Origin: a virus
Lineage: Duplodnaviria > Heunggongvirae > Uroviricota > Caudoviricetes
Length of the DNA: 58,013 bases
Virus record (IMG/VR): IMGVR_UViG_3300045988_029198
Coordinates: 1 to 58,013 of that record
Direction: 5' to 3' (one strand)
Shown: positions 15,853-52,772 of the stretch, piece after piece
Layout of the letters: every line of letters starts with the position of its first letter
Position numbering within the stretch: position 1 is the stretch's first letter
The notes under the pieces: model-generated
Told to the model about the DNA's origin: nothing
What the model saw: the letters and a program-made list of their open reading frames with translations, nothing else
The model's database searches: none
Position numbers and translations under genes: made by a program

Positions 15853-15900
15853 TTTAAAATAATTCTTGACGGATTACACAAGGACGTGTAACCTACAATC
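15853..15900 (+). promoter_or_regulatory. conserved promoter module copy (TTTAAAATAATTCTTGACG) with extended leader shared with the copy at 33201
   Basis: -35 TTGACG about 15866-15871 with AT-rich UP-like element; ~70 bp nearly identical to 33201-33272 including GGAGG RBS. Confidence 0.55.
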
Positions 15901-20204: not shown

Positions 20205-21101
20205 ATGGGCGGTAAAAGACTAACCAAAGAACAACTAGAGCATAACATAAAAGATATTTGTCAATCAAAAAATTACAAATTTATAAAATGGAAAGACGGG
20301 TTTAAAAACAAAGAATCACGAATTATTTTATCTTGTGTTACACACGGGGAATGGGACACTAAATGTTATCATTTTTTGAATGGTTCTGGTTGTCCGATCT
20401 GTGGTGGAACACGAACCACAAAAGGGTTAAGAATTGCACAGATTAAAGACAGTTTAACAAATTCTAAATCAAAGTTTATTAAATTTAAAACTAATTTTCA
20501 AAATGGAAATTCTGTTTGTTTGCTGAGCTGTATTGATCATGGTGGATGGGAGACAACAGTCAATAGACTAATCTTTACATCTGTTGATTGCCCGTTGTGT
20601 ATAACGAATAGACAGAAAACTAAACAAGAACGAGAAATTGAAATAACAAATAGATGTAAAGAAACAGGGTTGTTTTTTAATAAGATATTCGACGAACATC
20701 CGACATGGAAATCTAAAATATCATTAAAGTGTTCAACGCATGGTGATTTTGTTACAACAATTAATTCTTTTCTTAGTAAACAAAAAGGTTGTCCAAACTG
20801 TAGTAAAACAGGGTTTAAAGCTGGTAAGTATGCAACACTTTATGTCTTGCGGTCCACATGCGGTCGTTACGTTAAAATAGGTGTCAGTAATTGTGTAGAG
20901 CAAAGAATTAATACACTTCGTAGAAAAACACCATTTGATTTTCAAGTAATAGAAAAATTGAATGGACACGGGGCAACCATTCGTTCACTTGAAAAAGATT
21001 TTCATTCTCATTTTGAATCTGCAGGATTAACCGGGTTCGATGGTTGTACAGAGTGGTTAAAATGGAATCCAAATATAACCACTCTGATACGGATGTTATA
21101 G
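20205..21101 (+). CDS. T5orf172-domain putative homing endonuclease (paralogue 2)
   Basis: ATG at codon 26 of track ORF; Cys/His repeats plus T5orf172-like core; AT-rich; opposite strand inside the tail/neck operon. Confidence 0.7.
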   Translation: MGGKRLTKEQLEHNIKDICQSKNYKFIKWKDGFKNKESRIILSCVTHGEWDTKCYHFLNGSGCPICGGTRTTKGLRIAQIKDSLTNSKSKFIKFKTNFQNGNSVCLLSCIDHGGWETTVNRLIFTSVDCPLCITNRQKTKQEREIEITNRCKETGLFFNKIFDEHPTWKSKISLKCSTHGDFVTTINSFLSKQKGCPNCSKTGFKAGKYATLYVLRSTCGRYVKIGVSNCVEQRINTLRRKTPFDFQVIEKLNGHGATIRSLEKDFHSHFESAGLTGFDGCTEWLKWNPNITTLIRML

Positions 21102-43700: not shown

Positions 43701-43739
43701 GTTATGATTTATCCGTGGTCAAACAAGAAGGGTATGATA

Positions 43740-44516
43740 ATGAAAAAGAACCTTTTAGACGAATTGATAGATTTAAAAGGCGGGGTACAAAATGCTGTTG
43801 AATACCTTAATCGTCGAGGTGTTAAGGTGACTGTTGGTCGTTACAACCAATGGTTGAGCGGTAGGTTTCATCCTAAATATGAAACGATCAGTATTATTCT
43901 TGAAGAGATTACTGACTTCACACTGTCACCCTTGCCAGTACAACATTCTGACGAAAACATTGTTCTTAAACACACAATACCGGTTACCGAACTGCGTCAG
44001 AAATTACCACACAGGCGTTTTGCTAATAACTACTGGCAACGTGTCAGATACGTTGATTCACAGATCCTGGAAGCTGTTCACGGTCACGACGTGTGGACAC
44101 GGTTTGAGGCGATGTGTGGTAATTTTGAATGCGCAAGATACGTGTTACGCAGAAATTTAAACGAACACACAATTACTGACAGTTGGATTCAGAATGGTTT
44201 GCGCCGGGGATGGGTCCCGGAATGTGTAAATGTAATGGCCGATTTGCTTGAAAAATACGAAGGCACCGGGACACCGTTTAACGTGATGGTTTGTGAAGCA
44301 CCTGTAGCACGAGTGGAACCACCTGTAGCACGAGTGGAACCACCTGTAGCACGAGTGGAACCACCTGTAGCACGAGTGGAACCACCTGTAGTCGATGTCA
44401 GCGATTTGAAGGAGAAAATCAGACTGTATGCGTTATCACACAACCCGCATTGCGATGTAGATAATATGCCTGATGATGTTGTTTTGATGATGTATAAAGA
44501 TATGATGGGTCAATAA
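43740..44516 (+). CDS. putative DNA-binding protein (N-terminal HTH-like) with (PVARVEP)4 tandem repeat
   Basis: ATG at codon 13 of track ORF with GAAGGG upstream; start ambiguous between 43704, 43734 and 43740. Confidence 0.45.
   Translation: MKKNLLDELIDLKGGVQNAVEYLNRRGVKVTVGRYNQWLSGRFHPKYETISIILEEITDFTLSPLPVQHSDENIVLKHTIPVTELRQKLPHRRFANNYWQRVRYVDSQILEAVHGHDVWTRFEAMCGNFECARYVLRRNLNEHTITDSWIQNGLRRGWVPECVNVMADLLEKYEGTGTPFNVMVCEAPVARVEPPVARVEPPVARVEPPVARVEPPVVDVSDLKEKIRLYALSHNPHCDVDNMPDDVVLMMYKDMMGQ
44299..44393. repeat. 21-bp tandem repeat, ~4.4 copies, in-frame
   Basis: cacctgtagcacgagtggaac repeated head-to-tail. Confidence 0.9.
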
Positions 44517-44520
44517 AGAT

Positions 44521-44547
44521 AGCGGGGTAGTTAGCCCCGCTTTTTTG
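44521..44547. terminator. rho-independent terminator between convergent genes
   Basis: gcgggg-tagttag-ccccgc then TTTTTT. Confidence 0.7.
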
Positions 44548-44742
44548 TTAGTATTCGTCGCTATCATCCTTGTCATTGTATTCGATAAAATGACCCAATC
44601 GTTGTAATTCAGCACCTGCCATGAAATAACCTAGTGCGTCTGCTCTTTCGGAATCATTTTTAAATTCAGAAAGCGGATAACGTTCATAGAATTTATTAAT
44701 CAAAAGTGCTTGATCGAATTTTGTTGCATCATGATTCTTCAT
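44548..44742 (-). CDS. hypothetical acidic protein
   Basis: track ORF 64 aa. Confidence 0.4.
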   Translation of the reverse strand: MKNHDATKFDQALLINKFYERYPLSEFKNDSERADALGYFMAGAELQRLGHFIEYNDKDDSDEY

Positions 44743-44805
44743 CCGTACACCTCATAGAAAACGTGCGCCACATAGAGCGCACTGATAATTAATATGAACA
44801 GGTAG

Positions 44806-45060
44806 TTATTCACTTTTCAGGCACTCTACGCAAGTGCCGTTGATGAAGTGATGTTTGTGGTTGCTGAGGCTTTCGAATTGCTGGTTGGTGGTGTCACAAT
44901 CGTCTGCTATTTTGTTCAGTATCCCGTAAGAATGAGAAACCAGCGAATTAAATTCATCATCACTGATTACCGGTACAGGGACAAATCTAATCCCGGCATG
45001 TGCAAGACTGTTTGCCATTTCAAGACATTTGCGTATTTCTACAGGCGATGCTTTATTCAT
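44806..45060 (-). CDS. hypothetical protein
   Basis: ATG at codon 3 of track ORF, 2 nt after HD gene stop. Confidence 0.4.
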   Translation of the reverse strand: MNKASPVEIRKCLEMANSLAHAGIRFVPVPVISDDEFNSLVSHSYGILNKIADDCDTTNQQFESLSNHKHHFINGTCVECLKSE

Positions 45061-45062
45061 AA

Positions 45063-45632
45063 TCACAGATTCCCCATCGCTTTAACCAGCGCGTCGTAGT
45101 GTTTGTCAAACGCGGTTAACTGGACGTTCGTTAGTTTGTATTTGGCTTTAAACAATTCACGCTCAACAAGCGCGTATAACTCCTGGTTGCTTGCGTCTGA
45201 CAGATGAGCAAGCATGAGTTGTTTTTCAGCCAGGTACGTTACAGCAAACTTCGGATCGTGTCGGACAATTGAAGATGTGTTATCCAGCAGATCACACAGT
45301 TTTATAGTTTTCACCACAGGTTCAGCCCGTGATAAATGGTCGATATCCCGTGCTTTACGCTTAACACGGTTGCCGTGGTGTGGACGACTCACATCAGTAA
45401 GCTGATCAACATAACGTGCCACAGTCTCACCGAACTGCGAACACACATCACCCACGGTCACTGGCGTATCTTCAACGACGTCATGCAGCCAGGCAGCGGT
45501 AACCATATCCGGCGTACCACCATAGCGTTTAACCAGTTCAGCAACGTTCCGGCAGTGGTTCACATATGGGTCGTTGGTGTACTTACGAAGTTGATCACCG
45601 TGTGCGGCTGTTGCGAATTGTTCAGGTGTCAT
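45063..45632 (-). CDS. HD-domain (p)ppGpp hydrolase-like protein (small alarmone hydrolase-like)
   Basis: 189 aa; RelA/SpoT-type HD motifs AHGDQLRKYTNDPYVNH, AAWLHDVVEDT, KTIKLCDLLDN. Confidence 0.7.
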   Translation of the reverse strand: MTPEQFATAAHGDQLRKYTNDPYVNHCRNVAELVKRYGGTPDMVTAAWLHDVVEDTPVTVGDVCSQFGETVARYVDQLTDVSRPHHGNRVKRKARDIDHLSRAEPVVKTIKLCDLLDNTSSIVRHDPKFAVTYLAEKQLMLAHLSDASNQELYALVERELFKAKYKLTNVQLTAFDKHYDALVKAMGNL

Positions 45633-45916
45633 GATGGTTGTACCTCAAGTTTTATAGCGAATACTTTCACTGGATTATTTCCGAAAAATTCATGATTGAT
45701 TGTTTTTATTTCATAACCTCGATAGTGCATATTCAGAATCCGTTCGTTGTCATCTTTGCGCGGATAACCACGAGTGATGATTAACCTGTCATAGGTTCGG
45801 TTAATTAAACGTTTTTCCAGTAGTCATTGAACAAACGGTATTCTTCGGTTTTTTTCACCATTTTTAATCTGGTCAAAGTATTTACCATTAACGGCAAGTT
45901 GAAGTTTAGTGCTCAT
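45629..45916 (-). pseudogene. ASCH-like ORF interrupted by a single in-frame TGA (codon 31, at 45824..45826)
   Basis: one frame reads MSTKLQLAVNGKYFDQIKNGEKNRRIPFVQ-TGA-LLEKRLINRTYDRLIITRGYPRKDD...KLEVQPS; final stop overlaps HD gene start. Confidence 0.4.
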
Positions 45917-45918
45917 AT

Positions 45919-46182
45919 TCAATACCCTTTTAATTTTCTACACTCAGGACAGCGCCATCTACCTTTTTGGTAAACTCGCGTATGACCACGTTTACATTTA
46001 TTGGTTACCAGTGATATACCGAGACGTGACGCTTTAATGTGCACCGCTTCAACGTCCCGGCGAAGGTGATACGCTATTTCGTCCGCACTGATCTTTCCTG
46101 CATTAATTTTTAATAACGCCAGATCTCGTGCGGACCACTTCAAACCGTTACGAGGGAACCTGTTAGTCTGATACTCATACAC
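45919..46182 (-). CDS. putative DNA-binding protein (HTH-like plus C-terminal CPEC zinc ribbon), GTG start
   Basis: GTG at codon 27 of track ORF with AGGTGA RBS; SARDLALLKINAGKISADEIAYHL HTH-like segment. Confidence 0.4.
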   Translation of the reverse strand: MYEYQTNRFPRNGLKWSARDLALLKINAGKISADEIAYHLRRDVEAVHIKASRLGISLVTNKCKRGHTRVYQKGRWRCPECRKLKGY

Positions 46183-46186
46183 GAAC

Positions 46187-46378
46187 TCACCTTTTACGAA
46201 GCTGTATGGCAAATTCACGGATAGTGTCATCAAGGTCTGGACATAACAGATTGTCAGCAAACATCTCTACCCCCTGTGCCCGTACTTCAGCCAGAAAAGC
46301 ATCGGTGGCTGGGGTTTTGCAGGACGTTTGAATTGTCTCCTCTGTGTATAAAACACCCGTTCGATTGGCGGTATACAT
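46187..46378 (-). CDS. hypothetical protein (overlaps 46287..46541 in another frame)
   Basis: track ORF 63 aa; no clear RBS. Confidence 0.3.
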   Translation of the reverse strand: MYTANRTGVLYTEETIQTSCKTPATDAFLAEVRAQGVEMFADNLLCPDLDDTIREFAIQLRKR

Positions 46379-46541
46379 GATGTGCTGATTTCACAGCCTC
46401 AACTTCAGCAGCCAGCGCCGCACATTTATTTTCAAGTTCACCAAATTTGCGTACCAGATATTCAGCGTTTGTTTCGTTAACTTTCAGATCACCCGGGACA
46501 CATTTACCACGAAGAAAACCTTCCATTTCGTACACAGTCAT
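46287..46541 (-). CDS. hypothetical protein (true 3' end uncertain)
   Basis: track ORF 84 aa; ATG directly after upstream stop. Confidence 0.35.
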   Translation of the reverse strand: MTVYEMEGFLRGKCVPGDLKVNETNAEYLVRKFGELENKCAALAAEVEAVKSAHHVYRQSNGCFIHRGDNSNVLQNPSHRCFSG

Positions 46542-46766
46542 TTAACGCACCTCGACATCAATCATTAAATCTTCTGGTACTGTCACCACAACGCGGTCGT
46601 TTTCGTAAAATGGTGATAGCGGTTCCTCTTCCGGTTGTAAGCGAATGGTAAGTGTTGCCCCGTGGTAATTGATATAGCGTACCCAGTACCATTCGTTAAA
46701 TACTTCAATCTTGTCACCTGGTTTAATATCACGGGCAACGGTTGGATTCATCAGTCGGATAGTCAT
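46542..46766 (-). CDS. hypothetical protein
   Basis: track ORF 74 aa, GGGAG RBS. Confidence 0.45.
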   Translation of the reverse strand: MTIRLMNPTVARDIKPGDKIEVFNEWYWVRYINYHGATLTIRLQPEEEPLSPFYENDRVVVTVPEDLMIDVEVR

Positions 46767-46924
46767 TTCTTTTTACTCCCGGTTAGTTTGGCAATCCAAC
46801 GATTTTCATTAACGCTGGGGAAACTATTATTGAATTTACACTGATGTTCTTCTTCTTTTGTCAACGGTTTAAATTTAGAACGACAGGTCAATGTACCGTA
46901 AATTGATGTTAAGTTGTCTGACAT
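46763..46924 (-). CDS. small ORF (53 aa)
   Basis: below track cutoff; fills gap after ParB-like gene; ATGA overlap with next gene. Confidence 0.3.
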   Translation of the reverse strand: MSDNLTSIYGTLTCRSKFKPLTKEEEHQCKFNNSFPSVNENRWIAKLTGSKKK

Positions 46925-46929
46925 AGTTT

Positions 46930-47697
46930 TCATAACTGGTGCTCCTTCAGTGCTTTTAACGCTTCGAACTGTTCAGCGGTAAGTTCAACCAGTACTTTAC
47001 CACCTTCCGAACGGGTTACAGACCGTTCACCACGGATTGCTTCCACTGCAGACCGTACCAGTTTAGCAGGTGGACGACGCGTTACTACTGGTTCTTTATC
47101 ACCTGCTTTAAACTGGCGAATGGCTGCTGATGCGCTGATTTCACCGTTCTGAATACGACGTTTAAGTTCCAGCGGCATATCAAGAATATTCAGTTGTTCG
47201 TAAACGTGTTGGACGGTTTTACCGACCTGTGTAGCGATCTGCTCAACACTCATACCATATGAACGGAAACGACCGTAAATAACAGCACGTTCAACGGGTG
47301 ACCACGGTTTACCCTCATTACCTTTTAACAGTGTCAGGGTCTGTTGTAGTTCGTCACCGGACGATTCAACAACGTCTACTGTCAGAATCGGCGTCCCGGC
47401 CTCAATAGCTGCCAATACGCCACGTAAACGATGCTCACCATCCTGAACATAAGGAACACCATCAACAACCTGTACCACGATCGGTGGAACGAAATCGCCG
47501 TTGGTATAAGCCTGACGAAAGTTTTCAATGTGTGCCAGTGCTGCTTCAGTTTCCCAGTAGTTGTCGGTAAATACACCGCGTGGGTTATGTCCTGGACGAA
47601 TCTTGATAATACGCGGATCAATGCGATATGCGTTACCACGTTTTACGTTGGTTTTATCGGTATCAGATAGCTTGCGAAGGGAGTTAATGTTAGCCAT
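46930..47697 (-). CDS. ParB-like nuclease domain protein
   Basis: 255 aa; ParB N-domain motif VQDGEHRLRG; own promoter copy upstream. Confidence 0.7.
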   Translation of the reverse strand: MANINSLRKLSDTDKTNVKRGNAYRIDPRIIKIRPGHNPRGVFTDNYWETEAALAHIENFRQAYTNGDFVPPIVVQVVDGVPYVQDGEHRLRGVLAAIEAGTPILTVDVVESSGDELQQTLTLLKGNEGKPWSPVERAVIYGRFRSYGMSVEQIATQVGKTVQHVYEQLNILDMPLELKRRIQNGEISASAAIRQFKAGDKEPVVTRRPPAKLVRSAVEAIRGERSVTRSEGGKVLVELTAEQFEALKALKEHQL

Positions 47698-47731
47698 TTG
47701 TGTTTAGCCTCATGTGTGTTAACTGAGGCTA

Positions 47732-47775
47732 ATTATCGGGTGGGGTTGGTAATCTGTCAAGAATTATTTTGAACT
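47732..47775 (-). promoter_or_regulatory. conserved promoter module copy (minus strand) for ParB-like operon
   Basis: reverse complement gives AAAATAATTCTTGACA, 17-bp spacer, GATAAT -10; 8-bp-stem hairpin in the 5' UTR. Confidence 0.65.
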
Positions 47776-48200
47776 ATCAGAGGGTAGATTTCGAACCAGA
47801 ATACCACGGGGCGTTCAATCACTTGAAGCAGTCCGAAACGTTCAGCCGTGCGAAAATTAACGCTGTATGACCTAGCGCGGTTTACTTGTTCACCGATTTG
47901 TTTACGGAATTGTTCCAGCGTATACGTAGTTTTAAACAGATTACAAGGTGCACAAGCTGGGTACAGATTTTCAAGAACATCATTATGTTCCCGATAATGT
48001 TCTCCGGTTGCTTTTAGTTTCCATAAACCTTTTTTAGCCGCGTCCATATCCTGTTCAAGTTTACGATAAACAGCCTGAACATGGTCCGCGTGCCAGCCTT
48101 TTTCCGGCAACAACTGACCACAGTAAGCACAATACCCGCCGAATTTCATACGCAGTTCCTGACGCTGTTTTTTAGACAGTTTCACGAGTAAGGCACCCAC
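47757..48200 (-). CDS. HNH endonuclease
   Basis: 147 aa; CAYCG ... HADHV ... N ... PACAPCN. Confidence 0.7.
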   Translation of the reverse strand: MGALLVKLSKKQRQELRMKFGGYCAYCGQLLPEKGWHADHVQAVYRKLEQDMDAAKKGLWKLKATGEHYREHNDVLENLYPACAPCNLFKTTYTLEQFRKQIGEQVNRARSYSVNFRTAERFGLLQVIERPVVFWFEIYPLIVQNNS

Positions 48201-48577
48201 ACAGTTAAACCAGCTTTCAACATGCGACGGTGCATATCAGCAGTACCACGCCCACCGGGGAACACAACACCGTATGTAGGCCGTGGTTCACCCTCTAACA
48301 TTGCCTGATTACGTTGATGACCTGCAACAGCGTTATAAGGCCCGTGCTTGCCCTGTTTTACAACTGCACCTGGTACAGTCAGATCGTCCCACGCTGCCGG
48401 ACAACTACGCACAGGAATACCGTGTAATTGCGCCCATTGCTTACACAGGTTATCAACACCTAACGCACCACCTTCAATTAGTTCGGTAATGGGGAATTGT
48501 TTGTGAAGTAGTCCTAACGCGGAAAATACTGCTGTTCTGTCGTTGAAGTCACGACCACCTGTAACGACTATTATCAT
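48182..48577 (-). CDS. SLOG-superfamily protein (DUF2493 / YspA-like Rossmann fold)
   Basis: 131 aa; VVTGGRDF ... IEGGALGVD ... VVFPGGRGTADM pattern. Confidence 0.6.
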   Translation of the reverse strand: MIIVVTGGRDFNDRTAVFSALGLLHKQFPITELIEGGALGVDNLCKQWAQLHGIPVRSCPAAWDDLTVPGAVVKQGKHGPYNAVAGHQRNQAMLEGEPRPTYGVVFPGGRGTADMHRRMLKAGLTVWVPYS

Positions 48578-49254
48578 TGTTTATTAGCCTCAAATACAGC
48601 GCGAGCAAAACCACGCGGGGTTAATGAACGTAACTGTTTAGTTGTTTCAGATTTACCACCCAGATATTTCCAGCCCCAGAAAAAGCCGATGTTAATCGGT
48701 CCGGGACGTTTTTCAGGCATTCTGAAACCGTTACCGAACCACAGACACGTTTTCTTCGTGTATCCGTCAAACATCGGCATTTTAGGGTGAAAAGGTTTAT
48801 CATCTGTTGTCATATAACCGCCATATTCCCACGGGTGAAAATAAGCATCAGGTGTCCCCATCATTTCAGGACGCGATAAAGCACCGACAGGGTTTTCGAC
48901 CATCCAGGGTACGTTATAACGTTCTCCGAGTTCACGGATCAGTTTTGCGTTTGCCAGTGCATACTGTAGTTCAGCGTCATCCCGGTCATGTTGCGAACCG
49001 CTTTGAGCAAACAGGGTGCAATCCGGAAAACCAAAAATAATTGACGGTAAAGGTGTTCCCAGTATTTCCTGCTTAATTGCAAATTGTGGGTCAATCCACT
49101 GATTAACGTAATGAAGATTTGGGTGTTGCATTTTGATTTTATATTCCCCGTGATTACCGGAATCAGCATTAAAGCAATAAACCTGATAGCCAGCCTTAGC
49201 CCACGGTAAGCCCATAATCCCGGAACCATCGAATAATGACCAGACAATTTTCAT
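48574..49254 (-). CDS. DNA (cytosine-5)-methyltransferase-like protein (short, reduced target-recognition region)
   Basis: 226 aa; motif I LFDGSG, motif IV-like FPDCTLFAQSG, motif VI ENP. Confidence 0.5.
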   Translation of the reverse strand: MKIVWSLFDGSGIMGLPWAKAGYQVYCFNADSGNHGEYKIKMQHPNLHYVNQWIDPQFAIKQEILGTPLPSIIFGFPDCTLFAQSGSQHDRDDAELQYALANAKLIRELGERYNVPWMVENPVGALSRPEMMGTPDAYFHPWEYGGYMTTDDKPFHPKMPMFDGYTKKTCLWFGNGFRMPEKRPGPINIGFFWGWKYLGGKSETTKQLRSLTPRGFARAVFEANKQ

Positions 49255-49466
49255 CCTTCTGTTTCCTCTACGATCCGCGTGATTTTAACAGGCGCAATTG
49301 TTACTTTTCTGCAATTGAAACCCTGATCGCGAAGTGCTTTAAGTGCAACACCAGCCATGTAAGTTGAACTGAACAGAGTAGCTTCACTGATATCAACCCA
49401 GGTAATCCGGGTATCAATATGTGCATAACGGTCTTCTTTTTTGATCACAGCACCGAATTCAGTCAT
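49251..49466 (-). CDS. hypothetical protein
   Basis: track ORF 71 aa, ATGA-type overlap. Confidence 0.4.
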   Translation of the reverse strand: MTEFGAVIKKEDRYAHIDTRITWVDISEATLFSSTYMAGVALKALRDQGFNCRKVTIAPVKITRIVEETEG

Positions 49467-49656
49467 GATCGTTTTTCACTCCCCACATGCAAGCGCCAAT
49501 TGATGCCGCAGCCGCTAATAATCCAAGACCAGCCAGAAACCACCACGGAGTTTCCGCATGATTACCACGGGTCATTAGTCCGACAATGCAAGACGCTAGT
49601 GTTACGGACACAAGGAACACGATAACAGTGATTAAACGGTCAAATATGTTTTTCAT
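49459..49656 (-). CDS. small membrane protein
   Basis: track ORF 65 aa, two hydrophobic segments. Confidence 0.4.
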   Translation of the reverse strand: MKNIFDRLITVIVFLVSVTLASCIVGLMTRGNHAETPWWFLAGLGLLAAAASIGACMWGVKNDHD

Positions 49657-49886
49657 GGTTTTTTGTACCCCGTGTTAAACTTTTCTATTGCTTCTTCTTT
49701 AGTTGCTGAAATACAAATACCAATGCCGTTATCTAATAAGAAAGACCAGTAGTTTTCACCGTACTTTTTAATCATTTCTGGATGTAAAGATTTTCTTTTG
49801 ATAAGTGTTGGATTGTGTGACTCAACAAAAGAATATAAGTCTTCGCCTTGTAAGTTTTCAAAGTCTGTTAATTTAGATGGTTTCAT
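49653..49886 (-). CDS. hypothetical protein
   Basis: ATG at codon 47 of track ORF 49653..50024. Confidence 0.4.
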   Translation of the reverse strand: MKPSKLTDFENLQGEDLYSFVESHNPTLIKRKSLHPEMIKKYGENYWSFLLDNGIGICISATKEEAIEKFNTGYKKP

Positions 49887-50112
49887 GGTTTTTCTTCCAG
49901 TTCCATTCGCGACGTGCAGCCGCTGATGTTGTTTGATAAGTGTGACCGCAGTTTTTACAATGACAGGTGTACACGTTTCCATTTTCACCAGTAACTTCAA
50001 CGTTTTCCCAGTTGCGTGTACCAAACCCTAATAAATAATCACGTAGGTTTCGCTCATAACACTTACTGCAGCGTAATGAACGAGTTCGACGACATGATCC
50101 ACGACCACCCAT
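49873..50112 (-). CDS. zinc-finger protein
   Basis: 79 aa; CSKC ... CHCKNCGH cysteine/histidine clusters. Confidence 0.45.
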   Translation of the reverse strand: MGGRGSCRRTRSLRCSKCYERNLRDYLLGFGTRNWENVEVTGENGNVYTCHCKNCGHTYQTTSAAARREWNWKKNHETI

Positions 50113-50114
50113 TA

Positions 50115-50327
50115 TTAGTTCACCTTAGCCCATACAAGTTTATGAATAGATGTTCTGTATTTTCTCGCGGTAATATTAAAATCATGACCCTCGTGATAAA
50201 TACTTTCGTGTTTCTTGAAGCTGTTAGCAATTAACGTGAAAGGTAATAGTTGCTTCAGACGATAAAAATAAAACCGTGTTCCATTAGGACACTGTGAAAG
50301 TCTCATTAATCGGTAGCGTGGTTTCAT
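50115..50327 (-). CDS. hypothetical protein
   Basis: ATG at codon 16 of track ORF with AAGGAG 9 nt upstream. Confidence 0.45.
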   Translation of the reverse strand: MKPRYRLMRLSQCPNGTRFYFYRLKQLLPFTLIANSFKKHESIYHEGHDFNITARKYRTSIHKLVWAKVN

Positions 50328-50358
50328 AACAATCACTCCTTGTTCACTTGATGTACAG

Positions 50359-50398
50359 ACTATAGCGCACATATCTGTAATTCGTCAAGAATTATTTT
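50359..50398 (-). promoter_or_regulatory. conserved promoter module copy (minus strand)
   Basis: reverse complement gives AAAATAATTCTTGACG, 18-bp spacer, TATAGT -10. Confidence 0.65.
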
Positions 50399-50417
50399 AC
50401 ACATCCTTGTGCAATGA

Positions 50418-52772
50418 CTAACCGTTACTCGCAGGTGGGAAAGGCACTACATTAGCTGTTGATTGAAAATGGAGAAGACGAATACCCCTGAAACCGTTTA
50501 ATCGTACGTTATTTATATTAACAACGTCTTTTTTCACTTTACCACGAAGGGTGGATTTAAACGCCCGACTAAATGCAGTTTTAGTCATTGCTGGACCACC
50601 TTCCTGTGTTTTCCAAAGACGATAACGACCATAGAGTTCTTCAGTATGTACCTCACCATCAGATACCAATTCGCAACAATCTCTGATAAAACTTCTAAGT
50701 GGTGATTGTTGATCCATAATTTCCTGACGTTCTTCCAGACTTGCTTTTGGTTCAGTAAACCGTCCGTTTGCACGTAACCGTTGTAAACCTTCAATCGCCC
50801 AGTTACAGATCCCCGGTAGTTCTTTCATCAGTCGTGCTTCCAGAGTGGTATCTTCACGACCCAGGAACGAAATGTTGAATGGCAGGATCAGCAAACGGTT
50901 AGCCATTGCACCTGAATCATCAGCAAATGCCGGTATGTTGTTAGCAGCCAGTGTCATACGTCCCGGTAAACGACCGTTCCACGCACCTTTATACTTACGA
51001 TTAACCGGAATCGCATCACAACCTGTAATAGATTTGAAACGGTCCAGAATTCGGTTGCGATCAGGCCCGGACACACTGTGAGCATCACCAATAAACAGCA
51101 CAGATTTATCCAGCACAGTTTCAAGTACCGCATCACTGGCTAAACCCTCTAGTGTGATCCCTGCATACGCTTCATCACCTACCAGTGCCTGAATGATGCG
51201 ACCAATCGTACCTTTACCGGAACGTGGTGCACCAATCAACAGCATCGCTTTCTGATAGTCATACGAGTTGACAAGCATGTAACCCAGCCATTCCTGCAAC
51301 AATGCAATACGTTCCTGATCACCTTCCAGAGTTGTATTTAAAAACTGTTCAAACGCTGGTGCACGGGCAAACGGATCATAGCTATATGGTAAAATACTGG
51401 TCGTAAAGAAATCCGGGTTATGTGCGTCACATTTACCAGTATGTACATCCAGTATCCCGTTCTGGCAAACAATATAGTGTGATACATCAACGCCGGGCCA
51501 TGTTCCAAGCTCACGATCAGCCCGTGTGAATAAATACGACAATACCTTGTACGTACCATTAATCATGTCGGCTTTTGGTTCGCTGGCAAGCATTGCCATA
51601 GATATCTGATGTTTCAGTTCATCTTCACTGACACGTTCCCACACACGACCATTGAACCGGTACGGCTGTTGCTGGACGAAAATCAATGTGTTGTTCGGAT
51701 AATAGTTATTAACGAACGTGGATGCGTTAACCGTGTGGTTTGAACCATATGCACCTTCACCGGGTTTCACACTCATGTACGCAGGTGTTCCACCATTAGG
51801 AACGACGGTAGGCGCTGGTGTGACTGCTTTCATCAGTTCTGGTGTCATTGTCGGTTGACTACGATACACAGCATCACAACGTTCCACAGCGCCCAGAATC
51901 GTGTTTTCACGGTAATCCTGACGATCTGTCCATTTACCACGAACCAGCCCGGAACGGTTAAACAATCGTTCAATACGTTCGCAATCTTTCCCGGTCCAGA
52001 ACGCAAGGTGTGAACACAGGGCAGCATCTGCTGCTGATGCGTTGTAGTCTTTCCCCTGGTCACTAGGATATGACACAGACAGGCGTTCAACGTTTGCATT
52101 CCACAGATCCGCAAATGACGCTTTATTGCCAAATACTGAAGCAGCACTGGACGAATTTAACGCCATTTTAATCAGTTCATCGTCGTCTGTCGGTCCTGAC
52201 CAGTCATCACAAGGTGCTGTTGTCCAGCGTGCGGAACGGTCTGAACGGATACGACCATACCGGGCAATAGAATCATGAATACCCTGGGTATAATCAATAT
52301 CAACATCACCATTACCCGTGAGCGTCATCGCGACGAAACGATCACGCCAGTACATTTCCAGCCCGGTTTTCTGGTCGTTCAGACTGTTAAAACCTTCCGG
52401 TATGCTGGTATAAGCACAGATGATATGCAAACCTGTTCCTGACTGACTGACTTCGGTGTACGCGTTTGGAAAACGGTTTACGAATTCATGCGCCAGTGGT
52501 GACCACGTAGCTGTTGCCTGGTCTATCAGACAGTTATCAACATCAATAAAGAAGTACGGATCGTTTTCTGTGAATACAAAACCAACACCAGACATACCGT
52601 ACATTTGTGCCATACCTAACGCGGTGTGATAGTCAGACCAGTCGTTAGGGTTAGTGGTACTGGCTTTATAACCATGTACCGGACTGTATGGTACTTTCGT
52701 TGGTTTTTGACGATCGGCGACTGTCTCAAGTCGCCACATGACCCACTGTTTACGGTTCAGTAACCCTTTCAT
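50418..52772 (-). CDS. DNA primase/helicase (D5-like: primase-polymerase N-domain plus SF3 helicase)
   Basis: 784 aa; Walker A GAPRSGKGT in C-terminal half. Confidence 0.75.
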   Translation of the reverse strand: MKGLLNRKQWVMWRLETVADRQKPTKVPYSPVHGYKASTTNPNDWSDYHTALGMAQMYGMSGVGFVFTENDPYFFIDVDNCLIDQATATWSPLAHEFVNRFPNAYTEVSQSGTGLHIICAYTSIPEGFNSLNDQKTGLEMYWRDRFVAMTLTGNGDVDIDYTQGIHDSIARYGRIRSDRSARWTTAPCDDWSGPTDDDELIKMALNSSSAASVFGNKASFADLWNANVERLSVSYPSDQGKDYNASAADAALCSHLAFWTGKDCERIERLFNRSGLVRGKWTDRQDYRENTILGAVERCDAVYRSQPTMTPELMKAVTPAPTVVPNGGTPAYMSVKPGEGAYGSNHTVNASTFVNNYYPNNTLIFVQQQPYRFNGRVWERVSEDELKHQISMAMLASEPKADMINGTYKVLSYLFTRADRELGTWPGVDVSHYIVCQNGILDVHTGKCDAHNPDFFTTSILPYSYDPFARAPAFEQFLNTTLEGDQERIALLQEWLGYMLVNSYDYQKAMLLIGAPRSGKGTIGRIIQALVGDEAYAGITLEGLASDAVLETVLDKSVLFIGDAHSVSGPDRNRILDRFKSITGCDAIPVNRKYKGAWNGRLPGRMTLAANNIPAFADDSGAMANRLLILPFNISFLGREDTTLEARLMKELPGICNWAIEGLQRLRANGRFTEPKASLEERQEIMDQQSPLRSFIRDCCELVSDGEVHTEELYGRYRLWKTQEGGPAMTKTAFSRAFKSTLRGKVKKDVVNINNVRLNGFRGIRLLHFQSTANVVPFPPASNG

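Follow-up and report, generated by a model that had tools for sequence, protein, structure and literature searches.

Dcm-like cytosine methyltransferases (MTases) of phages have been studied in the Drexlerviridae phage K42 (KarlJaspers-like), in which escape mutants of the retron Ec86 mapped to a 711-bp dcm gene (bioRxiv 10.1101/2023.08.16.553469). Expression of K42 dcm leads to 5-methylcytosine (5mC) on the multicopy single-stranded DNA (msDNA), as detected by liquid chromatography-mass spectrometry; the mutations C82A, E128A, K175A and K176A abolish the effect, and K42 Dcm works alone when expressed from a plasmid (10.1101/2023.08.16.553469). A gene for an MTase of the same short family is present in the stretch of viral DNA analyzed here (58,013 nt; IMG/VR record IMGVR_UViG_3300045988_029198, called the window in the following). 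It is located on the minus strand in an array of small genes at 46930-50398, together with genes for a SLOG protein, an HNH endonuclease and a ParB-like protein.

The gene array is already known, since annotated records of several phages (Sasha, Sergei and Solent) contain it. In Salmonella phage Sasha it comprises gp71-gp77, annotated as DNA methyltransferase, "GTP-binding domain", HNH endonuclease and ParB-like partition protein; the order MTase-SLOG-HNH-ParB is identical, and the operons of Sasha, Sergei and Solent correspond to that of the window at 95-97% identity. Nucleotide comparison of 46930-50398 yielded matches to 23 phage records. The closest are the Escherichia phages PDP46 and PJ16 (95-96% nucleotide identity), the Salmonella phages Sasha, Sergei and Solent show 97% nucleotide identity, and remoter matches were found to 9NA (83%) and to Klebsiella relatives. 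Genes of the relatives already carry the labels "cytosine specific methyltransferase", "SLOG cluster4 family protein", "HNH endonuclease" and "ParB-like partition protein". These record matches indicate that the window derives from a 9NA-like (Nonanavirus/Sashavirus) virulent siphophage. An earlier note, made from the DNA sequence alone, had read the array as a dedicated DNA-modification or counter-defence system and had stated that no characterized system with exactly this gene set was known to its author. For the key gene the latter statement is outdated, as K42 Dcm has been studied and the array is annotated in the Salmonella phages; the feature is ordinary and already known, the short cytosine methylase family included.

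The MTase, SLOG and HNH Genes Are Gained and Lost Independently

We consider it likely that the region is a mosaic accessory part of a 9NA-like early operon, in which separate cassettes have separate jobs, and that it is not one system. The main genes are located in the window as follows:

48574-49254, minus strand: short Dcm-like C5 DNA cytosine methyltransferase, orphan, 226 aa; LFDGSG, C79 in FPDCT, E120 in ENPVG, K167/K168
48182-48577, minus strand: YAcAr-family SLOG protein (DUF2493), 131 aa; its start and the MTase stop share 4 nt
47757-48185, minus strand: free-standing HNH endonuclease, ~142 aa from the GTG at 48185 (open reading frame (ORF) to 48200); ~410-bp insertion compared to PJ16 and PDP46
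46930-47697, minus strand: ParB/Spo0J-like protein with a helix-turn-helix (HTH) domain, 255 aa; conserved in every relative examined

The presence of these genes was compared between the relatives, together with that of NADAR, which sits in the HNH slot in AVIO78A and KP13-27:

Window and Sasha: MTase, SLOG, HNH and ParB present; NADAR absent
PJ16 and PDP46: MTase, SLOG and ParB present; HNH and NADAR absent
KarinMuster: SLOG and ParB present; MTase, HNH and NADAR absent
AVIO78A: SLOG, NADAR and ParB present; MTase and HNH absent
9NA: MTase and ParB present, HNH as a 43-aa remnant; SLOG and NADAR absent
KP13-27: MTase, SLOG, NADAR and ParB present; HNH absent

The comparison showed that MTase, SLOG and HNH genes are gained and lost independently, and a co-functioning system is not supported. 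The sole constant member, the ParB-like gene, is driven by a promoter of its own. The MTase and SLOG genes of KP13-27 are separated by an extra gene. Alignment of the SLOG-ParB junction revealed that the HNH gene lies in a clean block of ~410 bp that is present in the window and in Sasha; in PJ16 and PDP46, which do not have this block, the promoter element directly adjoins the SLOG stop codon. Gp80 of 9NA corresponds to the last 43 residues of the HNH protein and is devoid of the catalytic motif.

Co-occurrence was analyzed in 80 viral loci around MTase homologues, 71 of which lie outside the 9NA-like clade, and in 74 SLOG loci outside this clade; all counts refer to the best 80 loci per query and to 6 kb on either side. 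None of the 71 non-clade MTase loci contains a SLOG gene, searched for with a family profile hidden Markov model (HMM), or an HNH gene, and a ParB-like gene was found in two of them. Among the non-clade SLOG loci, 2 of 74 have an MTase gene, one of them adjacent (contig L158) and the other weak and distant. According to a rough estimate this cross-occurrence is near chance, the MTase family being present in ~3% of phage genomes. The proposal of a dedicated system thus fails because presence and absence are independent, because the genes do not co-occur outside the clade and because the HNH gene is an insertion. What stands of the earlier module claim is that the genes are accessory and not core, and that one of them encodes a C5-MTase.

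Several points weigh against the reading as separate cassettes. The counts given above cover the best 80 loci per query, beyond which there are some 500 more confirmed matches for each. In an unrelated 25-kb phage contig (L158, 6001-7088), a YAcAr SLOG gene is followed directly by the gene for a 252-aa MTase of the short family (HMM E 4e-38); this pair is located next to a terminase gene and is the sole independent SLOG-MTase adjacency among the loci examined. The tight translational coupling by ATGA overlaps, from the small genes to the MTase and on to the SLOG gene, is what a functional unit would likewise be expected to show. In addition, the CCWGG specificity of the phage Dcm was assigned indirectly in the retron study (10.1101/2023.08.16.553469).

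The Methyltransferase Belongs to a Large Family of Short Phage Enzymes

The MTase protein matches phrog_757 with an E-value of 1.7e-79. A search against Pfam did not yield any match at E<0.1, PF00145 included, NCBIfam was likewise silent, and a precomputed PF00145 match is present in 1 of the 120 listed homologues. The PADLOC model MTase_II matches the N-terminal 100 residues (E 6.8e-5), and a single-sequence search of the PDB returned a marginal match to M.HaeIII, in which motifs I, IV and VI are aligned. The only match from a profile search of the PDB was a fibronectin-binding protein, which was judged spurious. Because the Pfam, NCBIfam and PDB sequence searches gave little, a fold search and the literature were needed to place the protein. 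The AlphaFold2 (AF2) model has a pLDDT of 90.5, and Foldseek matched it with a probability of 1.00 to DNMT3A/B, M.HaeIII, 3g7u (a prophage MTase), DNMT1 and DNMT2, with TM scores of 0.45-0.55.

Alignment of 30 homologues showed which residues are conserved. The loop of motif I, which binds S-adenosylmethionine (SAM), reads LFDGSG (residues 7-12), is invariant and aligns with motif I of M.HaeIII. In motif IV (FPDC79T) the cysteine is invariant and is preceded by P-D, giving P-D-C instead of the usual P-P-C or PCQ; in motif VI (VE120NPVG), N-P-V-G is invariant and E120 nearly so. K167 and K168 are invariant as well. Motif VIII (QxRxR) was not seen in the protein, and a variable target-recognition domain (TRD) of ~80-100 aa was not present; the segment between motifs VI and X has ~80 aa, is highly conserved and contains a family-specific YTKKTC/FFWGW region. 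A homologue search found 638 proteins of 215-250 aa with ~60% identity in unrelated phages, the "TRD" region included. The family spans 1781 representatives of 50%-identity clusters and is present in 1492 of 50,697 phage records, among them Drexlerviridae, Dhillonvirus, Vequintavirinae, RB49, phiKO2 and mEp021. Its Dhillonvirus members have been annotated as "Dcm-like C5 cytosine methyltransferase" by the BASEL authors.

Judged by its sequence and predicted fold, the 226-aa protein belongs to this very large family of short phage Dcm-like C5-MTases, and its active-site residues are conserved. K42 Dcm is a member of the same family (~225-236 aa), and the solved fold closest to the window protein is DNMT3A, in agreement with the retron study. 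In the homologue from the Drexlerviridae phage Jahat_MG145 (47% identical), C82, E128, K175 and K176 align with C79, E120, K167 and K168 of the window protein, and these are exactly the positions mutated in K42 Dcm. The earlier assignment as a C5-MTase therefore holds on the basis of phrog_757, motifs I, IV and VI and the AF2 fold. Since the phrog_757 match, the fold and the catalytic residues are shared, family membership and an intact active site are established, and from these we infer the activity of this protein and its motif. The window MTase is only 43-47% identical to the Drexlerviridae enzymes (~45% to the homologue that gave 5mC), and it comes from another phage genus and another gene context.

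Strain MG1655 has its own Dcm. This strain was used in the retron study (10.1101/2023.08.16.553469), and Ec86 is not triggered there without the phage enzyme. Because the Dcm of MG1655 alone does not trigger Ec86 and conservation of the "TRD" extends over different hosts, the short family may in truth have a substrate or motif that differs from that of host Dcm. A literature search found no methylome data on the short family beyond the retron study. CCWGG occurs 95 times in the window, against expectations of 72 (base composition) and 132 (Markov model), which is uninformative on specificity.

Palindrome Avoidance and DNA Modification

The 6-bp palindromes AAGCTT, GGTACC and GGCGCC do not occur in the window, CAGCTG occurs once, and CCCGGG is found twice compared to 21 expected copies. 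In the whole window CTAG is also avoided, and CCGG and TCGCGA are over-represented. Avoidance of palindromes suggests long-term restriction pressure and not a global DNA modification. KarinMuster, which contains the SLOG, ParB and HD genes and not the MTase gene, is reported to show a marked sensitivity to restriction-modification (RM) systems, and the BASEL authors found no locus for supplemental DNA modification in this phage (PMC11990801). Taken together, the palindrome avoidance and the RM sensitivity of the relative argue against bulk DNA modification.

A second MTase is encoded on the plus strand at 3444-4220 (N6_N4 adenine/cytosine MTase, PF01555, E 2e-33), so that the N6-MTase reported earlier for 3098..4220 was found. 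The protein encoded next to it (3098-3448, plus strand) had been taken for a second SLOG-superfamily protein; it did not match any SLOG family in Pfam and is nucleoside-2-deoxyribosyltransferase-like (DUF7768/DUF4406, phrog_355). Its gene overlaps the start of the MTase gene, and as a two-gene association the 3098-4220 pair may be more genuine than the set at 46930-50398.

The SLOG Protein and Its Link to NADAR

YAcAr proteins (YspA/cpYpsA-related, DUF2493, PF10686) are found elsewhere fused to a helicase or to NADAR, or encoded beside NADAR, whereas the protein of the window stands alone. It matches PF10686 over its full length (E 1.7e-19; 69.8 bits, cut-off 28.2) and contains the conserved motifs TGGRD, GxAxGxD and FPGGxGTADM (FPGGRGTADM here). 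The AF2 model (pLDDT 96.4) has a Rossmannoid fold, for which ShosA, DprA, LOG-type proteins, TT1465 and the Moco carrier were the best matches. Both the family search and the predicted structure thus agree with the SLOG/DUF2493 assignment made earlier.

In unrelated phages the SLOG gene has SF2 helicase, primase, ssDNA-binding and recombination genes as neighbors, and in ICP1 the YAcAr domain is fused to the SF1B helicase HelB. Clustering of the ORFs near SLOG in the 74 loci gave only a soft pointer to a replication-gene context, since spurious antisense ORFs and related contigs dominate. In a 360-kb jumbo-phage contig (L139, 5758-6780), a YAcAr SLOG is fused to NADAR. A NADAR gene is located directly 3' of SLOG (L002, 3840-4262; L089, 3985-4326) in AVIO78A, in KP13-27 and in related contigs of the Klebsiella type, and the NADAR domains were confirmed in AVIO78A and KP13-27. 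The link between SLOG and NADAR is found repeatedly and does not depend on the MTase. The window does not contain NADAR, and the HNH gene fills that slot.

Phage NADAR proteins are reported to counteract the DarTG1 toxin-antitoxin defence (PMC11257639), and YAcAr SLOG domains of jumbo phages have been predicted to act on NAD-derived signals (PMC7824862). A literature search found no experimental paper on YAcAr function and no demonstrated biochemical activity for any member. The pairing and fusion with NADAR elsewhere could mean that the SLOG protein is a counter-defence factor, acting on immune signals derived from NAD+, ADP-ribose or other nucleotides or in the reversal of DNA ADP-ribosylation. 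The post-primase slot would then be an anti-defence hot spot, in which the cassettes (Dcm-like MTase, SLOG, NADAR and HD alarmone hydrolase) are each directed against a different host system. We regard this extended proposal as speculative and unlikely.

The HNH and ParB-Like Genes

Free-standing HNH homing endonucleases of phages have a zinc-finger HNH motif, a sporadic distribution and a precise insertion between two conserved genes. All of these features are shared by the HNH gene of the window, and homing, a cleavage site and mobility are predicted for it. The protein matches PF01844 (23.5 bits, cut-off 21.4) and phrog_2118 (E 1.4e-55), which agrees with the earlier HNH assignment; the motif residues are C24xxC27, H37ADH40, N78 and C83xxC86N. 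PADLOC returned a weak PtuB-like match. The likeliest start is the GTG at 48185, which overlaps the SLOG stop codon. Because of the clean insertion and the decayed remnant in 9NA, the gene is read as a putative selfish homing-type endonuclease, which fits a pattern of invasion, decay and loss.

Chromosomal ParB/Spo0J, Noc and KorB are CTP-dependent DNA clamps, and they are homologous to the ParB-like protein of the window from the arginine-rich box through the HTH. The latter matches phrog_1033 (E 8e-60) and HTH_ParB (28.4, cut-off 22.6), and residues 69-192 match solved structures of Spo0J, ParB, Noc and KorB with E-values down to 3e-7 (Thermus thermophilus Spo0J). TIGR00180 gave a partial match (37 bits, cut-off 58), and PF02195 did not match. 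The arginine-rich box GERRxRA reads GEHRLRG here, and the alignment with Spo0J runs from this box through the HTH. The CTPase catalytic box ENLQR (ENLQRED) is aligned to KGNEGK (KGNEGKP) and is not conserved, which makes CTP hydrolysis by this protein doubtful. The window protein thus differs from Spo0J, Noc and KorB in its degenerate boxes, and in addition the phage is virulent and has no plasmid stage. A ParA-like gene was not present in the operon, and a parS-like repeated palindromic site was found neither in 44000-51000 nor in a repeat scan of 44-53 kb. Taken together, "ParB-like" stands from the earlier description as "ParB-like nuclease", with a Spo0J-type HTH protein, and "nuclease" is unsupported: no sequence match points to a nuclease, and all are to DNA-binding partition, Noc or KorB proteins. 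A regulator or DNA organizer is more likely.

Separate Cassettes, Anti-Defence Island or Functional Unit

From the observed family memberships, motif conservation, gene independence and promoter conservation, the following division of labor can be proposed. The region would be the distal, mosaic accessory part of a leftward early/DNA-metabolism operon directly downstream of the primase-helicase gene, transcribed early by the host RNA polymerase from sigma-70-type promoters that carry a phage-specific upstream element. With tight packing and 4-nt overlaps, the genes would be co-expressed yet functionally separate. During replication, the orphan MTase with its short TRD would use SAM and Cys79 to generate 5mC on phage and host DNA, which most plausibly blunts some restriction enzymes and gives partial protection. 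The cost would be detection by retron Ec86-type sensors, so that the enzyme may shield the phage from some restriction enzymes and may expose it to Ec86 hosts; that a relative's enzyme triggers Ec86 would explain the sporadic loss of the MTase. The SLOG protein is predicted to be a nucleotide- or ssDNA-binding Rossmannoid with a NAD/ADP-ribose-related or a replication-accessory role, its recurrent partners elsewhere being NADAR and replication genes and not MTases. The HNH gene, inserted between SLOG and the ParB promoter, would propagate itself, and the ParB-like protein would bind DNA as a regulator or organizer.

An alternative would be an anti-defence island, in which the post-primase hot spot gathers independent counter-defence genes that act separately and share a common theme: the MTase against restriction, NADAR of the relatives against DarT1, the HD protein against toxic alarmone synthetases and the SLOG protein against nucleotide-signalling defence. 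We consider this possible and somewhat unlikely. The cassette-like variability is located in exactly the post-primase slot, but many cassettes are tiny ORFs without a recognizable domain. NADAR is confirmed in two relatives, and phage NADARs are reported to neutralize DarTG1 (PMC11257639); the HD protein matches a RelA/SpoT hydrolase domain, and action on NAD-derived signals is predicted for jumbo-phage YAcAr SLOG domains (PMC7824862). For the genes found here, however, anti-defence roles are predicted only, PADLOC yielded no match other than the weak ones to MTase_II and PtuB-like HNH, and SLOG adjoins replication genes in other phages.

Two further explanations assume that genes of the array act together. 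In an integrated DNA-(hyper)modification system, the MTase-like, SLOG, HNH and ParB proteins would jointly install or exploit a modification; SLOG would possibly supply or process a nucleotide-derived group, ParB would target DNA, and HNH would cut unmodified DNA. ParB-like proteins occur in some DNA-modification clusters (DndB, DpdB), and co-transcription, overlapping reading frames and the single SLOG-MTase adjacency in L158 are in line with this explanation. Nevertheless, it is largely refuted by the presence/absence matrix and is extremely unlikely, since all components but ParB are individually dispensable in close relatives, co-occurrence outside the clade is missing among the best 80 loci per query and the HNH gene was inserted recently and has decayed to a remnant in 9NA. 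The palindrome avoidance and the RM sensitivity of KarinMuster also argue against it, and the MTase family acts alone from a plasmid (10.1101/2023.08.16.553469). A functional pair of MTase and SLOG only, in which SLOG for example modulates MTase activity or the pools of SAM or nucleotides, is very unlikely as well. The two genes are translationally coupled by the 4-nt start/stop overlap at 48574-48577, they are adjacent in the window, Sasha, PJ16 and PDP46, and they follow each other as SLOG and then MTase in the unrelated contig L158. Yet each gene also occurs without the other (the MTase in 9NA, SLOG in KarinMuster and AVIO78A), an intervening gene separates them in KP13-27, and a partner was found in 0 of 71 MTase and 2 of 74 SLOG non-clade loci of the best 80 per query, which is near the rough chance level.

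The earlier observation is thus confirmed and its interpretation is partly supported, with one true modification enzyme in a variable, plausibly counter-defence-rich region. The discovery value is small, the array being deposited and annotated and its most striking member belonging to a studied family. It serves to illustrate that genes of phage early operons can be transcribed together and closely packed without necessarily forming a functional system. Testable questions raised are the true sequence specificity of the widespread short MTase family with its conserved "TRD", and what phage YAcAr SLOG proteins do biochemically and how they relate to NADAR.

Promoters, Small Genes and Extent of the Operon

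All ORFs reported earlier were present on the minus strand, at or close to the coordinates given for them, and a few starts were corrected. Neighboring genes overlap by 4 to 8 nt. Directly upstream of the region lies the primase-helicase gene, with NrS-1 HBD, D5_N and DUF5906 domains. The remaining features of the operon are, in the direction of transcription:

50359-50398, minus strand: promoter copy 1, with AAATAATTCTTGAC at 50384-50397, -35 TTGACG, an 18-nt spacer and -10 TATAGT
50115-50327, minus strand: small gene, 70 aa, phrog_9291, no assigned function; PDP46 and Sasha annotate a 213-nt gene here
49873-50112, minus strand: zinc-ribbon-like small gene, 79 aa, CxxC...CxxC; indel cassette absent from Sasha and PJ16
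49653-49886, minus strand: small gene, ~77 aa, no assigned function; start corrected to 49886; in the indel cassette of the zinc-ribbon gene
49459-49656, minus strand: small membrane protein, 65 aa, phrog_22517; annotated in Sasha as a lipoprotein, two transmembrane segments
49251-49466, minus strand: small gene, 71 aa, phrog_26050; retained in MTase-less relatives
47732-47769, minus strand: promoter copy 2, drives the ParB-like gene, with AAATAATTCTTGAC at 47756-47769, -35 TTGACA, a 17-nt spacer and -10 GATAAT
45063-45632, minus strand: HD hydrolase gene, RelA/SpoT-type hydrolase domain (HD_4 E 4e-15, TIGR00691 E 1e-20)
44521-44541, no strand assigned: intrinsic-terminator-like hairpin, bidirectional; likely true end of the transcription unit

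The five small genes, one of them a zinc finger, were found as described earlier; the product of 49873-50112 gave a weak zinc-binding match in Pfam (E 0.005). The two-gene zinc-ribbon cassette is shared with PDP46, whereas Sasha and PJ16 do not contain it. The start of the first small gene was corrected to 50327, where an AAGGAG ribosome-binding site precedes the ATG; the upstream ATG falls within the promoter.

The two conserved promoter copies reported for the region are present, each with a -35/-10 pair. The element AAATAATTCTTGAC consists of an A/T-rich upstream element fused to the -35 TTGAC. The window contains 12 exact copies, at 15857, 26382 (minus strand), 26688, 31596, 33205, 35428, 38896, 40361, 42178, 47756 (minus strand), 50384 (minus strand) and 55343. 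With up to two mismatches 14 matches were found, compared to 1.0 expected, near-copies being located at 20315 and 55280. Both copies in the region are on the minus strand and are followed by TTGAC(G/A), a spacer of 17-18 nt and TATAGT or GATAAT; copy 2 overlaps the final codons of the HNH ORF. AAATAATTCTTGAC appears to mark a class of phage-specific promoters, equipped with an UP-like element, by which most of the genome's transcription is organized.

Of the single minus-strand transcription unit proposed earlier, the strand is correct and the end at 46930 is not: the unit continues up to the hairpin at 44521-44541, taking in some eight additional small genes and the gene for the HD hydrolase. 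The HD hydrolase noted downstream was found to be of the RelA/SpoT type. It appears to be small-alarmone-hydrolase-like and might break down (p)ppGpp or (p)ppApp in the course of infection. The gene at 45629-45916 (minus strand) is split across three frames by two frameshifts, one of them at an A7 run, and is either a pseudogene or a sequencing error. The conceptually repaired product (96 aa) matches phrog_625 (no assigned function) from end to end (E 5e-37) and did not match any Pfam family, so that the label "ASCH-like" could not be verified. At 46187-46541 (minus strand), two overlapping ORFs (84 and 63 aa) match consecutive parts of phrog_614. Because PDP46 has a single 429-nt gene there, a second gene of the operon appears to be split by a frameshift. 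Rfam and repeat scans of 44-53 kb revealed no hidden RNA. Within the gene at 43704-44516, a 21-nt tandem repeat of ~5 copies (44295-44399, plus strand) encodes PVARVEP repeats, and the Sasha homologue of this gene contains an annotated "direct tandem repeat region".

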